The notes below the pieces were generated by a model. That model saw nothing but the letters and a program-made list of their open reading frames with translations, was not told where the DNA came from and made no database searches. Of a stretch of DNA of 64,000 nt, positions 8,774-56,399 are shown one piece after another. Within the stretch, counting starts at the first letter, position 1. Each line of letters begins with the position of its first letter. This DNA comes from a virus. Lineage: Duplodnaviria; Heunggongvirae; Uroviricota; Caudoviricetes. Both the position numbers and the translations under genes were made by a program. The stretch is from the IMG/VR virus record IMGVR_UViG_2740892427_000001, one strand, 5' to 3'.

Positions 8774-8834
8774 ACAGCCTGCTTCCGTATATTAATAATT
8801 AATATGTAGTTATTTATATATACAGAAGCAGGCT
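8774..8834 (-). terminator. long stem-loop AGCCTGCTTCCGTATAT-n23-ATATACAGAAGCAGGCT just downstream of the Dam gene
   Basis: 17-bp arms, AT-rich loop, U-rich tract follows on the minus strand. Confidence 0.5.
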
Positions 8835-36964: not shown

Positions 36965-37148
36965 AGCATCGTTGGTTTGCAAGACAGACCTTATGTAAGC
37001 AGTTTTAGTAAAGCAGTCTCAGTTCAGTGTTATCTTCTGATTTCCCTTCTTCGTGAGTCTCCTCCTTAAGTGCCTAAGTAAGTCCCAATCTATACAGATC
37101 AAATTCTCGCCGCACTATGTGGCTCACAAAATTAAGAAGGTAATATCT

Positions 37149-37364
37149 ATGTCTAATAAAATGACTGGTTTAGTAAAATGGTTTAACTCTGATAAAGGCT
37201 TTGGCTTTATTTCTCCTGCTGATGGCAGTAAAGATGTTTTTGTACATTTTTCGGCAATTCAGAGTAATAATTTCCGCACTTTGGAAGAAGGCCAGCAGGT
37301 CGAATTCTCTATCGAGAATGGTGCTAAAGGCCCAGCAGCAGCAAATGTCGTTGCTCTAAGCTGA
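37149..37364 (+). CDS. cspA: cold-shock protein, CspA family
   Basis: [23 protein letters not shown]...[10 protein letters not shown]...[20 protein letters not shown]: RNP1/RNP2 cold-shock-domain motifs; start set to internal ATG 37149. Confidence 0.9.
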
Positions 37365-37639
37365 TTCAACGCTGATGATCCTCATTTCTACAATAACGAA
37401 GACGGTGTAAGCCTGAGTGGATAGATTTGTAGGATTGTACAAGTTGAATAAATTAGCATGGTAAGGCCATGCTAATTAAATCGACACAACGGCCAGTTTA
37501 TTCCATAAAAGTGAATTGCCCATTGTGGCGAAATGCGGGGTTGCCGCATGAATAGTCAAAGGCAGAAGCTAACTGCCGGCATGGCAAAACAAAGTGCGTA
37601 AGAGGAGTGACTTCCTCAACAAGCGCCATAATTCTTTAT

Positions 37640-45356: not shown

Positions 45357-45743
45357 ATGTCTGATAACAAGATTGAATTTATAGAAAGTCGCTACGCTGC
45401 TTTTATCGCAGGGTTGATTGAATCCTCACCTATGAGCCAGGCCCAGATAGCCAAAACAATTGGGTATAAAAACGCCAACAACCTTTCTTTAATTAAAAGC
45501 GGCAAAATTCCTTTGCCTATCGATAAGGTTCGTCCGCTGGCGCTGGCACTGGGTATTGAGCCAAGTCGTCTTATGATGATGGTGCTGGAAGAACGCCAAC
45601 CCGAACTCGCAGCATTTTTATACAAAGAAGGCACTGCTCCTCTTAACGAGGACGAAAAACAGGTTCTTGCTGCATATAACGAGCGATTCGGTAAAGAGAA
45701 AGGCGCATCACAAAAGGTTGTTGAGGCCATAAAGTCTCTATGA
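45357..45743 (+). CDS. HTH-domain transcriptional regulator (XRE/Cro-cI-like)
   Basis: SQAQIAKTIGYKNANNLSLIKSGK helix-turn-helix. Confidence 0.6.
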   Translation: MSDNKIEFIESRYAAFIAGLIESSPMSQAQIAKTIGYKNANNLSLIKSGKIPLPIDKVRPLALALGIEPSRLMMMVLEERQPELAAFLYKEGTAPLNEDEKQVLAAYNERFGKEKGASQKVVEAIKSL

Positions 45744-46841
45744 AAAATTTACACGAATAAGCTCTGTTGATAGACGATCTCCCTTAAATTTGTGGTCAAT
45801 TTCGTCTAAATCCGGTTGCTCTACGATTGATGCGATGTACGTCGAGAAACTTTCTAAGGCGTCTCGCATCTCGTCCATATAATCGTGCCGGTCGTAGACC
45901 CGATCTATCCCCTCAAGACTGTGGTTCATGATTTTACGTGATACCTCCTGGCTTATGCCTAATGCTGGGAAGTAACTACGCGCAGTACGGCGCAAATCTC
46001 GGGGTGTAAATGGCTCAAGCTCCATCAGTTCTGGTCGTTCCAGAATACGACGTAATGCCTGGGCTATTGCCACTTTAGACATAGGAAGGTCTTTCCCGAT
46101 TTTTTTATTCGAAGGCACGAGCCACTGGCTGTCTTTACCATATTCGAACAACTCTTCAATACAAGTGCGCATTAATGAGCTTAAAGGCAGAGAATGCTCA
46201 CGGGCAGATTTGTTCCTCTTGCCTTGATTCCAAACCCCACGCTTAAGATTGAACTCACTTTTTTTAGCCCGCAGTACTTCGTCAGGTCGTCTTGCGGATA
46301 CAAGACATAGCCTGGCCGCCCATTTTGTACCAGCACACACATTGAAGTAGTCCCATATATTCCAGAACACCCATACCTCTGCGTCGGTCAGCTTCCGCTC
46401 GCGAGGTGTGGGCTTTGCGCCACCGGCAACTTTGTTAAGTGACATATCGTTTAACGGTGACACGTCTATCATCCCCTGGAAGGCGCACCAGCTAAGGAAC
46501 TGCTTCATCAGAGAGAAAACGCGGCGACCCATAACAATTTTGCCATCCAGTATTAGTGGGTTGACCAGTTGGTTCACCATGAACCTATTAATGTCACTTA
46601 CTTTTACATCGGCAATGTGCGGCAAAACATGTATCAAAATACAATGAACAGCGATCTCTGGCCGACGTCTGGTTATCAGCAGAGATAAGCGAGTGAATAA
46701 CATGAATGCGTCCGAGAATCTCATGTCATTGCTGACCTGGGAGATCGTAACGGCCTGCATTTGAGATGCTCTTTCGAGATACTCTATCGCCTCTTTTGAG
46801 GTGTTCTCCGCAGCGCGTGCTCTGTCAAAGCTATTTTTCAT
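45738..46841 (-). CDS. tyrosine recombinase / integrase family protein
   Basis: C-terminal catalytic region TPRDLRRTARS...NHSLEGIDRVYDRHDY (R...HxxR...Y pattern). Confidence 0.75.
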   Translation of the reverse strand: MKNSFDRARAAENTSKEAIEYLERASQMQAVTISQVSNDMRFSDAFMLFTRLSLLITRRRPEIAVHCILIHVLPHIADVKVSDINRFMVNQLVNPLILDGKIVMGRRVFSLMKQFLSWCAFQGMIDVSPLNDMSLNKVAGGAKPTPRERKLTDAEVWVFWNIWDYFNVCAGTKWAARLCLVSARRPDEVLRAKKSEFNLKRGVWNQGKRNKSAREHSLPLSSLMRTCIEELFEYGKDSQWLVPSNKKIGKDLPMSKVAIAQALRRILERPELMELEPFTPRDLRRTARSYFPALGISQEVSRKIMNHSLEGIDRVYDRHDYMDEMRDALESFSTYIASIVEQPDLDEIDHKFKGDRLSTELIRVNFS

Positions 46842-47690: not shown

Positions 47691-47710
47691 AAAGGGGCCG
47701 AAGCCCCTTT
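47691..47710. terminator. bidirectional terminator AAAGGGGCcgaaGCCCCTTT
   Basis: perfect 8-bp stem, A-run upstream, T-run downstream. Confidence 0.7.
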
Positions 47711-47784
47711 GAATTTTGCGCTGAAAAAAAGTGTTGCTAGGATGTTAGCAAGCTATGGTTAAGAACGTCTGCCGTAATTGTCTA

Positions 47785-47864
47785 TCACAGCGTTGAGCGG
47801 TCTGGTTTATGTTAGCGGAGTCTTAATCTGGGTGATTAAAAGGCCAAACCGCTCAACGCTGTGT
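47785..47864 (-). other. long stem-loop (~20-bp stem, 38-nt loop) immediately 3' of tRNA-Ser
   Basis: arms atcacagcgttgagcggtctgg / ccaaaccgctcaacgctgtg; the single mismatch is G-U-compatible only in the minus-strand transcript. Confidence 0.5.
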
Positions 47865-47865
47865 T

Positions 47866-47952
47866 TGGCGGAGAGTAATGGAATCGAACCATCATCGCTT
47901 GCGCAATGGGACGGTTTTCAAGACCGCTTGAGCACCATGCTCCCTACTCTCC
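47866..47952 (-). tRNA. tRNA-Ser (anticodon UGA), class II with long variable arm, encoded CCA
   Basis: manual fold: acceptor GGAGAGT/ACTCTCC, anticodon loop CUUGAAA, T-loop GGTTCGATTCC. Confidence 0.7.
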
Positions 47953-48050
47953 AGCTATTGTGATGGTCGGTGCTGAACTCCGACACAGGGTTGTAGCAAG
48001 CCCCGCAAAGCGCGCACTACTGTAGTTGCGGCACATCAGCCTGTGCATTC

Positions 48051-48133
48051 ATCACAACGGTAAGATCACTACCTTTCGACCAGTCATTGTGCACATGAAC
48101 GACGATTAACCGTAATGATCTTATCGTTGTGTT
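48051..48133 (-). other. imperfect long stem-loop in tRNA spacer
   Basis: arms atcacaacggtaagatcact / aatgatcttatcgttgtg. Confidence 0.35.
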
Positions 48134-48180
48134 GTGAAGCCAGATGCTTATCTTCTGGTTGCTTCAAAGAGCTGCACTTC

Positions 48181-48271
48181 CTCACAACGGTAAGAGCACT
48201 GGTCTGACTCTATCGATTTACGGGCTTGTGGGTCAGTATCGCCGATTCGCCCAATGCTCTTACCTGTTGTG
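48181..48271 (-). other. imperfect long stem-loop immediately 3' of tRNA-Thr
   Basis: arms ctcacaacggtaagagcactgg / ccaatgctcttacctgttgtg. Confidence 0.4.
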
Positions 48272-48272
48272 T

Positions 48273-48348
48273 TGGTGCCGGTTAACGGGATCGAACCGCT
48301 GACATCCTGCTTACAAGGCAGACGCTCTACCAACTGAGCTAAACCGGC
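48273..48348 (-). tRNA. tRNA-Thr (anticodon UGU), encoded CCA
   Basis: GCCGGTTTAGCTCAGTTGGTAGAGC...CUUGUAA...GGTTCGATCCCGTTAACCGGCACCA. Confidence 0.8.
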
Positions 48349-48352
48349 AATT

Positions 48353-48439
48353 TGGTGGGGAGTGATGGAGTCGAACCACCCGAGTCGCAATGACAGTAGA
48401 TTTACAGTCTACCCCGCTGCCCCTACGGACTAACTCCCC
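48353..48439 (-). tRNA. tRNA-Tyr (anticodon GUA), long variable arm, encoded CCA
   Basis: anticodon arm GTAGACTGTAAATCTAC, T-loop GGTTCGACTCC, acceptor GGGGAGT/ACTCCCC. Confidence 0.8.
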
Positions 48440-48444
48440 TAAAT

Positions 48445-48519
48445 TGGCGATGGTGGGTGGATTCGAACCACCGACCAGTTGGTTAACAGCCAACTGCTCT
48501 ACCGCTGAGCTACACCATC
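48445..48519 (-). tRNA. tRNA-Asn (anticodon GUU), encoded CCA
   Basis: GATGGTGTAGCTCAGCGGTAGAGC...GTTGGCTGTTAACCAAC...GGTTCGAATCCACC. Confidence 0.8.
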
Positions 48520-48782
48520 AATTCAGCACTGCCAGTATTTATTACTCAACAGTGCCAATCGCGACGGTTTAGTTTCTGCCAGGAAACGCACCGCTACTTG
48601 CACTTTTCGTTAGTGCCAGACGCTTTCGACTTCGCTCAATAGTAGAAGGCAAAATCTTTAAGTAGATGATGTTTCTGAGGACAGCACCTACTTTGTAATT
48701 TATACAATGTGATGTATGGAATCATTTGTTGTGAAAACAGGCACCAATGGCAACAGTGGTTAAACCTACACAACAATCCTGT

Positions 48783-48909
48783 CTTCACAACGTTGAGGCC
48801 ACTACTCCGATTGAATGTTTGCCCAACATGTTACATATCAACGCTCGCCGGTATCTCTGTGAATAGAACCTTAGAATTGATAAAAATGTAATGGCCTCAA
48901 CGTTGTGTG
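48783..48909 (-). other. long stem-loop (18-bp stem, ~86-nt loop) upstream of the tRNA cluster
   Basis: arms cttcacaacgttgaggccact / aatggcctcaacgttgtgtg; mismatch G-U-compatible on the minus strand. Confidence 0.45.
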
Positions 48910-49069
48910 CTGGCTAACCATACCAGCCGGGCTACGTCGCCGCTTTTTAACCCAGTATAAACGACATAATTGAACAAAATGACGTAACAGGATGGGCGGT
49001 CAGTGGCTAAGAATCCGGGAGTCATATGGAGTTGAAAATATACCAACCGCCCATTCTGTTACTTCATCG

Positions 49070-49107
49070 GATAGGGCATAGTGGTTTGGCTGTCTATGCC
49101 CTATCCT
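49070..49107. other. perfect 13-bp stem-loop GGATAGGGCATAG-n12-CTATGCCCTATCC
   Basis: read directly. Confidence 0.5.
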
Positions 49108-49311
49108 GCGTTCTGCAATCACACTCGCTCAGTGTGTCCCATTTCGGTAACGAGGCTGGAAACTGACCTCGCTGGTGTTTGGCTTATTAGGCTACTGCCA
49201 GATAGACTTCTTCGTTTGCACTTGTATTTAAGTTCAAACAGTCGCGTCTCAACGAAAACAAAGTCATCTTATACATAAAAGATAAGTAAGTAAATACTTA
49301 TCATGATGTTT

Positions 49312-56341: not shown

Positions 56342-56399
56342 GACCTGCTTCCGTATAAATAATAATAAGTAACTTAGTATTTATATACAGAAGCAGGTC
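56342..56399 (-). other. long stem-loop GACCTGCTTCCGTATA-n26-TATACAGAAGCAGGTC, paralog of 8774-8834
   Basis: shared 14-bp arms with the same G-U-compatible mismatch in both copies. Confidence 0.5.

Follow-up and report, generated by a model that had tools for sequence, protein, structure and literature searches.

A family of long stem-loops beside phage tRNA genes resembles the RNase III processing stem in the 23S rRNA precursor from Escherichia coli

Phage hairpins cut by RNase III are known to punctuate polycistronic transcripts, as at the sites of the T7 early RNA (R0.3 to R1.3 and others) and the site in the lambda N leader. The PeSL cassettes of T4-type phages, which consist of an early promoter and a stem-loop, are said to be mobile regulatory units (work attributed to Arbiol and coworkers, 2010), and maturation of 23S rRNA is reportedly performed by RNase T (attributed to Li and coworkers, 1999). 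The intervening sequences (IVS) of 23S rRNA combine a conserved stem with a variable tip and are sporadically distributed. In Salmonella, Yersinia and Proteus, these IVS are hairpin insertions of ~100 nucleotides (nt) that are excised by RNase III, which also cuts pre-23S rRNA at +7 from each mature end (PMC8708148). RNase III sites contain a 4-bp proximal box beside the cut and a 2-bp distal box ~11 bp away, and a substrate requires ~11 bp on one side of the cut and, ideally, ~22 bp overall (PMC3867540). In the present study, we examined a 64,000-nt stretch of DNA from a virus of the Caudoviricetes (IMG/VR record IMGVR_UViG_2740892427_000001; this whole stretch is referred to as the window), in which the region studied best matched SSU5-like phage-plasmids of Escherichia coli, namely, Escherichia phage CMS-2020a (96.5%) and phage Cyrano (96.4%). 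Its minus strand carries four tRNA genes together with four long hairpins, H1 to H4, which we propose with moderate confidence to be RNase III processing cassettes that would release stable RNAs from a long transcript.

The four hairpins belonged to one family, and all were read on the minus strand. H1 (positions 47786 to 47863; a CACAGCG variant) had a 20-bp stem and a 38-nt loop, while H2 (48053 to 48131) had 19 pairs plus an A.C mismatch at pair 8 and a 39-nt loop. H3 (48183 to 48271) was composed of 6 bp, a bulged A at 48265, a further 14 bp and a 48-nt loop, and H4 (48786 to 48907), which lies 266 nt upstream of tRNA-Asn in the transcript, had a 20-bp stem and an 82-nt loop. A conserved 20-bp stem of the form 5'-CACAAC(A)GGUAAGAGCAUUGG...CCAGUGCUCUUACCGUUGUG-3' was common to all four, and the loops of 38 to 82 nt were mutually unrelated. 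The three longest inverted repeats of the entire 64-kb window all fell inside the 1.3-kb hairpin stretch. A preliminary description of this region had named five hairpins, H1 to H4 and a perfect 13-bp hairpin, and each was present where it had been placed, as judged from pairing and from folding (z scores of -4.9 to -10, with equally good folds in 0 of 200 shuffles); its inventory missed a sixth, with 21 to 25 pairs, at 48979 to 49067. It had also pointed to a stem mismatch that is C-A on the plus strand but G-U on the minus strand in two of the hairpins. This asymmetry was real and was located at stem pair 17, but it was found in all four CACAACG hairpins and not in two only. Each of H1 to H4 formed 19 to 20 pairs on the minus strand versus 16 on the plus strand, and H2 had one position, pair 8, that favored the plus strand.

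A covariance model, R1, was built on the family stem. In the window, R1 gave exactly four matches, H1 to H4, and each scored 7 to 15 bits better on the minus strand (45.9 to 53.0 bits) than on the plus strand (35.5 to 40.4 bits); the individual values were 47.4 versus 37.9 bits for H1, 53.0 versus 40.4 bits for H2, 45.9 versus 38.5 bits for H3 and 50.2 versus 35.5 bits for H4. Overall, R1 detected 85 sites from 35 sources, and a strict pattern of the arms matched at least 120 viral contigs. Members were present in P1, D6, phage Ro157c2YLVW and the SSU5-like phage-plasmids of E. coli and Klebsiella, as well as in the early-left leaders of lambdoid prophages of Pantoea, Mixta and E. coli, in Shigella phage DS8 and in Klebsiella phage SopranoGao. 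Among 5,426 complete E. coli genomes, 691 carried the region that includes H3 and H2, with 696 of the 724 places being on plasmids, and the RefSeq annotation under these matches was only tRNA-Thr, one hypothetical protein or nothing. When the strict arm pattern was applied to 185,579 species genomes (one per species), just 21 stretches were matched, mostly without a hairpin. Family hairpins had a total length of 68 to 122 nt, the stems being 19 to 24 bp regardless of the loop, and at least 23 unrelated types of loop were seen on the one stem.

Covariation was assessed in 45 distinct stems, using a model-fitted alignment from which the loops had been removed. Standard pairs occupied 94.4% of cells compared to 77.3% in shuffles, and changes on both sides were detected at 16 of the 20 pairs (139 cells). 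The observed values for pairing and covariation were reached by 0 of 500 shuffles, and controls in which the partner was slid gave 33% to 55%. The resulting consensus was 5'-CACAAC(A)G-KU-R-AG-NNC-AYU.. / ..AGU-GNN-CU-Y-AM-CGUUGUG-3', in which the CACAAC/GUUGUG base, pair 11 (an invariant A-U), pair 12 and pair 18 were nearly fixed and pairs 8 to 10, 13 to 16 and 19 covaried freely; pair 17 was U.G in 23, C-G in 11 and U-A in 7 of the stems. With orientation set solely by the neighboring tRNA, G-U outnumbered A-C by 56 to 18 in 35 distinct stems, and the longer stem was on the tRNA strand in nearly all of ~110 tRNA-bearing loci. These results supported selection on the stem structure at the RNA level. 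They bore out the RNA-level structure that the preliminary description had proposed for the minus-strand tRNA transcript, and, of the checks that it had called for, the tRNA and covariance scans recovered the four tRNAs and the four hairpins, and comparison with related genomes showed conserved stems.

The location of the hairpins was examined in relation to neighboring stable RNAs. As described previously for this region, the window contains tRNA genes for Ser, Thr, Tyr and Asn, on whose places ARAGORN and Rfam agreed and all of which are on the minus strand: tRNA-Ser(UGA) at 47866 to 47952, tRNA-Thr(UGU) at 48273 to 48348, tRNA-Tyr(GUA) at 48353 to 48439 and tRNA-Asn(GUU) at 48445 to 48519 (75.5 bits with the Rfam tRNA model). 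The CCA end of tRNA-Ser, at 47866, is followed by AA and then H1, while a single A separates that of tRNA-Thr, at 48273, from H3, so that the earlier observation of hairpins directly after these two tRNAs was upheld with spacings of 1 to 2 nt. Across the related loci, hairpins likewise started 1 to 2 nt past the CCA of tRNA-Thr, tRNA-Ser or tRNA-Asn, with a 2- to 3-nt overlap with the CCA in Klebsiella. Of the 279 cluster tRNAs from all loci, 116 had the next tRNA within 10 nt and 146 were followed within 3 nt by a hairpin of 17 bp or longer, which left 17 with neither. In the lambdoid loci, the hairpin directly followed the U run of a terminator-ended RNA of ~100 nt, just downstream of the early-left operators, and in DS8, SopranoGao and Pantoea it was directly downstream of a conserved 55-nt module. 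The theme shared across loci is that the hairpin adjoins the 3' end of a stable RNA.

The base of the family stem resembled a proven host site for RNase III. In E. coli rrnB, the leader (...UCUUCGG-GUUGUG-A, immediately before 23S) and the trailer (ACAAC-G-CCGAAG, immediately after 23S) are two strands that pair, and the corresponding phage stem is CACAAC-(A)-GGUAAG / UCUUACC-GUUGUG-A. Both have the 6-bp ACAAC/GUUGU(G) block, the AAG/CUU of NNNAAG/CUUNNN, an A trailing GUUGUG and, in the commonest phage variants, a bulged purine on the ACAAC strand, and in both the 3' end of a stable RNA lies 0 to 2 nt from the ACAAC strand. Identity of the 3' arm to the rrnB site was 10 of 13 bases in 14 stems; the three differing pairs (pairs 7 to 9) were compensated, and the same pairs vary within the family. 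The 5.6-kb rrnB locus contained the sequence CTTNNNGTTGTGA once, in the 23S leader, and the 64-kb window contained it twice (H2 and H3), compared to chance expectations of ~0.01 and ~0.1, respectively. When the known pre-23S cut was projected onto the phage stem, it fell exactly 5' of GUUGUGA, just beyond the bulge. The stem had 19 to 24 pairs on the transcribed strand, of which 12 to 13 were above this predicted cut, in line with the substrate lengths given above, and a cut after pair 7 placed the near-invariant pairs 17 and 18 at the position of the distal box. The phage version differed from the rRNA site in being permuted, with the outer end closed by a variable loop and the 23S side open, and in forming one local hairpin of 68 to 122 nt, whereas the rRNA strands are 2.9 kb apart; cleavage of the phage version is a prediction.

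Taken together, these features suggested a mechanism for the minus-strand transcript. The four CACAACG hairpins would fold into 20-bp RNA stems that could be targets for host RNase III. Each stem would be equivalent to a circularly permuted 23S-flanking duplex, with the end that faces the 23S body left unclosed and an arbitrary loop capping the far end, so that the upstream stable RNA (a tRNA here and other small RNAs elsewhere) would take the place of the 23S 3' end and the downstream RNA that of the 23S 5' end. An RNase III cut ~7 bp above the base would leave the tRNA with a single-stranded trailer of ~8 to 10 nt, no longer in a stable duplex, which 3' exonucleases could trim to the CCA by analogy with maturation of 23S rRNA. 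The same cut would free the downstream RNA, with a short GUUGUGA extension, and release the upper hairpin. By analogy with pre-23S rRNA, cuts were predicted at 48264/48263 and 48189/48188 in H3 and at 47857/47856 and 47792/47791 in H1. The preliminary description had offered processing sites, terminators and small stable RNAs as possible roles. Processing gave the best fit, given the 23S-like stem and the adjacency to tRNA 3' ends, and stable small RNAs may arise as a by-product in the form of the excised upper hairpins. Termination was not supported because none of the hairpins has a U run, the 3' flanks of H1 to H4 being AUAG, AUGA, AGGA and AAGA.

The similarities and differences between the family and other described systems were also considered. 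Like the T7 sites and the lambda N-leader site, the hairpins are phage encoded, would divide up a polycistronic RNA and form a set of related copies in one genome; the T7 sites, however, have an internal loop and separate mRNAs, in contrast to the near-perfect stems that follow tRNAs in the phage-plasmids, and R1 found no similarity of sequence or structure in T7 or the lambda N leader. The 23S IVS are comparable, as described, in that they are hairpin insertions excised by RNase III, but they are inside chromosomal rrl genes, and the strict arm pattern had no match to chromosomal rrl in any species genome. The PeSL cassettes resemble the family in that both are short, conserved, non-coding repeats on either side of variable modules, through which recombination shuffles those modules; they differ in being promoter and terminator units that act at the level of DNA and transcription in lytic T4-type phages, have no sequence relation to the family and contain a promoter, which the family hairpins lack. 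With the HK022 put and lambdoid nut sites, the lambdoid members share the position in the early-left leader, but the structure differs and the defining features of those sites are absent. In the window, only tRNAs and a cspA leader passed the gathering thresholds of Rfam (release 15) and none was on the hairpins, while a search at E values of up to 10 gave only chance microRNA-like matches to the hairpins, as it did in 17 related loci, P1 and N4. The arm sequences were not found in the literature searched, and a preprint on the P1vir transcriptome did not mention the hairpin region. The family is, most likely, undescribed and yet ordinary in kind, namely, a set of RNase III-type processing stems.

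Several points weighed against the proposal that the hairpins are RNase III processing cassettes. The involvement of RNase III is deduced solely from the shape of the stem and its likeness to one host site, and, as R1 recognized neither the known RNase III sites of T7 nor the lambda N leader, the family does not represent a general signature of RNase III sites. With a cut at 7 bp, the lower duplex would be short, and RNase III might cut nearer the middle of the stem or not at all. Conservation of the stem could stem from another factor or from gene conversion between copies. The covariation alignment had been fitted to the structure of the model itself and hence leans towards that structure, and, because many of the loci are closely related, the events counted for adjacency and orientation are not independent of one another. 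Finally, in DS8, an ORF-free (lacking open reading frames) unit of ~750 nt (L153, 2096 to 2890, plus strand) contains two family hairpins, a promoter-like TTGACA-17-TAGATT and a terminator-like hairpin, has no tRNA and no downstream gene on its strand and is opposed to the flanking tail genes; this unit looks like a stand-alone non-coding RNA gene, and the RNAs themselves may be the product there.

Other explanations for the conserved stems were examined. The hairpins may act uncut, as passive stability stems that shield downstream RNA from 5'-end-dependent RNase E and could also block 3' exonucleases. A hairpin 1 to 2 nt from a tRNA end is what a 5'-terminal protective stem would need, the structure is strand-specific RNA, and the content of the loop is apparently irrelevant, all as expected of such a stem. 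The conserved stem sequence, the fixed length of ~20 bp and the match to the 23S RNase III site would, however, be left unexplained; a stem abutting the CCA would impede the usual RNase E cut and exonucleolytic trimming of the tRNA 3' end; and H2, H4 and a P1 hairpin (L002, 2592 to 2691) are not beside any processed end. We regard passive protection as unlikely. The hairpins, or their excised upper parts, might instead be functional small RNAs in which the stem serves as a scaffold for an active, variable loop, for example, an antisense regulator or decoy. Such a role would suit the at least 23 unrelated loops on one stem, the recurrence of some loop motifs in distant phages (L046 and L141, for instance, both have CGCGCCUGGUUAGC immediately ahead of the 3' arm) and the tRNA-free unit of DS8, with its two hairpins and its own promoter-like and terminator-like sites. 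No target was identified, though, and BLAST searches with the H2 and H3 loops against the 5,426 E. coli genomes returned only homologous copies in phage-plasmids and prophages. Loops were, moreover, freely swapped or deleted between near-identical genomes, which suggests weak constraint on them. Small-RNA function as the primary role thus appeared improbable, and it is compatible with RNase III processing without excluding it.

Two further explanations do not involve RNA processing. DNA-level elements, either mobile elements of the miniature inverted-repeat type or sites of recombination bounded by 20-bp terminal inverted repeats, could account for the multiple copies per genome, the variable presence between close relatives, the spread over unrelated phage types and the break points at the arms, and a tyrosine recombinase gene lies ~1 kb away (45738 to 46841). 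The G-U versus A-C asymmetry nevertheless always favors the transcribed strand, the interiors (at least 23) are unrelated, unlike those of copies of one mobile element, and the flanks contain no visible target-site duplication. The P1 and lambdoid loci have no nearby recombinase, and the strict pattern hardly occurs beyond phages and phage-plasmids, the 21 matches among species genomes being mostly due to chance. Specific candidates of this type, a miniature inverted-repeat transposable element or an integron attC-like site, were rejected, as there were no extrahelical bases, unpaired spacer or duplication and the strand bias tracks transcription; a DNA element is very unlikely. Antitermination signals of the nut or put type would permit read-through of the long untranslated tRNA region and its terminators. 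The lambdoid hairpins are at the nutL/putL position in the early-left leader, directly after a terminator and with no N-like ORF seen; some members have a boxA-like UGCUCUUAC in the 3' arm with a small hairpin 13 to 14 nt later, and the spacer between H3 and H2 contains GCUCUUUGAA. This reading was downgraded because tabulation of all arms revealed UGCUCUUAC in a subset only: most members lack the word (for example, CCGCUCAAC in H1, UGGCCUCAAC in H4 and UACCCUUAC in P1) and, in those that have it, it lies within a perfect duplex. A lambdoid nut site, for which a boxA, a boxB hairpin and an N protein gene are required, was rejected as no single-stranded GCUCUUUA-like boxA was seen (the word being paired and confined to the subset) and as no N-like ORF of at least 80 amino acids was found in the lambdoid leaders. 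The put RNA is ~70 nt and has a two-stem fold with bulges and a minor-groove triplex (PMC9378689), as opposed to a perfect 20-bp stem, and was likewise rejected: the fold differs, HK022 has no family member, no motif was detected in the HK022 immunity region, and R1 had no match in L149 or L150. As the DS8 unit, in addition, ends at a terminator facing convergent tail genes, antitermination was considered extremely unlikely.

Known small RNAs were also compared with the hairpins. Y RNA (YrlA, RF02553), which consists of a long stem and a tRNA-like domain, was considered because some loops bear a T-arm-like GGUUCGAAUCC, which is present in only a few members, such as that of P1 at 2828 to 2914 (L002). 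The matches were weak (18 to 26 bits versus 69) and were on true tRNAs or on a long-stem hairpin of N4 with a T-arm-like loop, and never on family hairpins. The P1 annotation includes a 'dicF-like region' upstream of the tRNA genes, but the DicF model had no match in the window, the related loci, P1 or N4.

Comparison with relatives indicated that the hairpins coincide with points of genome exchange. Cyrano lacks H2, H3 and tRNA-Tyr, and other relatives have different loops on the same arms. Homology of relatives with the window breaks at 48251 to 48253, the junction between arm and loop of H3, and deletions extend between the similar 5' arms of H3 and H2. As the arms are conserved while loops and flanks vary, the arms appear to be joints at which homologous recombination shuffles modules of tRNAs and small RNAs from phage to phage. 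The 51-nt spacer between H3 and H2 (48132 to 48182, minus strand; AGGAAGUGCAGCUCUUUGAAGCAACCAGAAGAUAAGCAUCUGGCUUCA) contains a boxA-like word (GCUCUUUGAA, GCUCUUUGAAGCAA) and a small hairpin, CCAGA-AGAUAAGCA-UCUGG, and is conserved in P1-size E. coli plasmids (94.6% to 97.3% identity over query positions 81 to 154), in which the neighboring loops differ. Another small hairpin, GCACA-GGCUGA-UGUGC (48031 to 48046, minus strand), starts 6 nt past H2 and belongs to a recurrent 3' flank, RUGAAUGCGCAGGCUGAUGCGC; flanks of this type, in which G-C and A-U pairs replace each other by compensatory changes, recur after family hairpins in P1-like and lambdoid loci and in those of DS8 and SopranoGao. A bolder extension of the RNase III proposal, which we hold only tentatively and consider rather doubtful, is that the family is a portable RNA punctuation cassette derived by permutation of the host 23S site, by means of which any stable RNA gene could be inserted into an operon and its RNA still be released, with the arms driving exchange among the unrelated P1, D6, SSU5-like, lambdoid and DS8 phages. 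The excised upper hairpins, with their hypervariable loops, would in that case make up a novel type of phage small RNA that has its own functions.

Two other hairpins lie on the minus strand upstream of H4. The hairpin at 48979 to 49067 has GUAACAG ends and forms 25 pairs when read on the minus strand compared to 21 on the plus strand, and the perfect 13-bp hairpin is at 49069 to 49106 and has no U run. Neither was matched by R1, and both were outside the family by the covariance model (E > 10), but both are kept with compensatory changes in SSU5-like relatives. An intermediate form of the former, CAUAACAGGUAAGGGCGCUGG, was matched by R1 in L028, and this hairpin is probably a diverged relative of the family; the latter has compensatory variants (GGAGAGGGCAUG/CAUGCCCUCUCC) in relatives and a Klebsiella version like the upper stem of the family. 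These sequences suggest that the two are diverged or truncated family relatives.

The surrounding region was low in coding capacity, as reported earlier: between 47645 and 49311, all ORFs were of 80 amino acids or fewer, and each overlapped tRNAs or hairpins. A pattern scan for sigma-70-like promoters found none between 47200 and 49800, although the same scan also missed two evident terminators. As no promoter was found in this interval, the tRNAs are probably part of a longer minus-strand transcript. Two terminator-like sites on the minus strand, read directly from the sequence, lie downstream of the hairpins and close the tRNA unit: UUGCUA-ACAUCC-UAGCAA followed by U7 at 47723 to 47751 and GGGGC-UUCG-GCCCC followed by U6 at 47691 to 47710. 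In the counterpart region of Cyrano, a leftward replication block (helicase, primase, ligase and small ORFs) leads into the tRNAs, which are followed by genes for a hypothetical protein and glutaredoxin. Elsewhere in the window, a full-length match to the cspA thermoregulator 5' untranslated region was detected at 36971 to 37389 on the plus strand (Rfam RF01766; 187.6 bits versus a threshold of 78), which represents a cold-shock-type leader on a phage-plasmid. Dense repeated words (TATCCACTGTAGTGAG, TATCCACTATAGTGAG, AACCACTGTAGG and ATCCACTGTGGCGAG) and palindromes at 27290 to 27630 resemble iterons or a partition site. Two copies of a different hairpin (GCCTGCTTCCGTATA ... TATACAGAAGCAGGC), with AT-rich loops, were present at 8776 to 8834 and 56342 to 56399 and, as a T-rich run follows each on the minus strand, may be terminators.

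Further observations were made in the compared phages. A conserved module of ~55 to 65 nt, CCAGACGAUAUCUGAGUGACUUAAAAAACAGAUGGGAGCCGGUGGAAUCCCGGCA, ends in a T-arm-like hairpin and an A and may be a tRNA-derived small RNA; it was present in the N4 relative AlfredRasser (L151, 2500 to 2567) and in L133, L152 and L153, being located within the tRNA cluster in N4 and directly upstream of family hairpins in the lambdoid loci, DS8 and SopranoGao. At 2590 to 2760 of L151, the tRNA cluster of N4 further contained an unannotated tRNA-like sequence, UCCGGUG...UCUGGUUCGAGUCCAGACGCCGGAACCA, and a long-stem hairpin whose loop carries the T-arm UUAGGUUCGAAUCCUAA. In lambdoid prophages (L133, 6560 to 6700; L137; L051), the RNA of ~100 nt right after the early-left operators ends in a strong terminator, GGCGGUUGCUCCGG...CCGGAGUAACCGCUCCUUUUU, and the leaders extend for ~800 nt without an N-like ORF. 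In P1 (L002, 2376 to 2945), the ORFs upl and plp are antisense to at least three family hairpins (2330 to 2416, 2592 to 2691 and 2828 to 2914), plp overlaps tRNA-Thr, and many P1-like contigs have a 196-nt indel inside plp (spacer of 136 versus 332 nt); for these reasons, upl and plp are probably not genes. A subthreshold match to STnc100, a Salmonella small RNA, was detected in P1 between the hairpins and tciA (L002, 2218 to 2337, minus strand; 33.4 bits versus 47). One viral contig with a family hairpin also contained four tandem RtT RNA repeats (L110, 13011 to 13632, plus strand; Rfam RF00391, 49 to 56 bits).

Three features of the family stand out, namely, the permuted copy of a host 23S site, the spread over unrelated enterobacterial phages and the apparent use as a joint between tRNA modules. 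The hairpin region is unannotated in RefSeq and is covered in P1 by the antisense ORFs upl and plp, and the family is suited to a clean new RNA-family model. If the proposed processing is correct, it would explain how mature 3' ends are generated for tRNAs in phage mRNA operons when no second tRNA follows, and it would offer a simple case in which a phage has copied a signal for rRNA processing from its host. It would also explain the modular gain and loss of tRNAs among the P1-like and SSU5-like phage-plasmids, in a region carried by 691 of 5,426 complete E. coli genomes.

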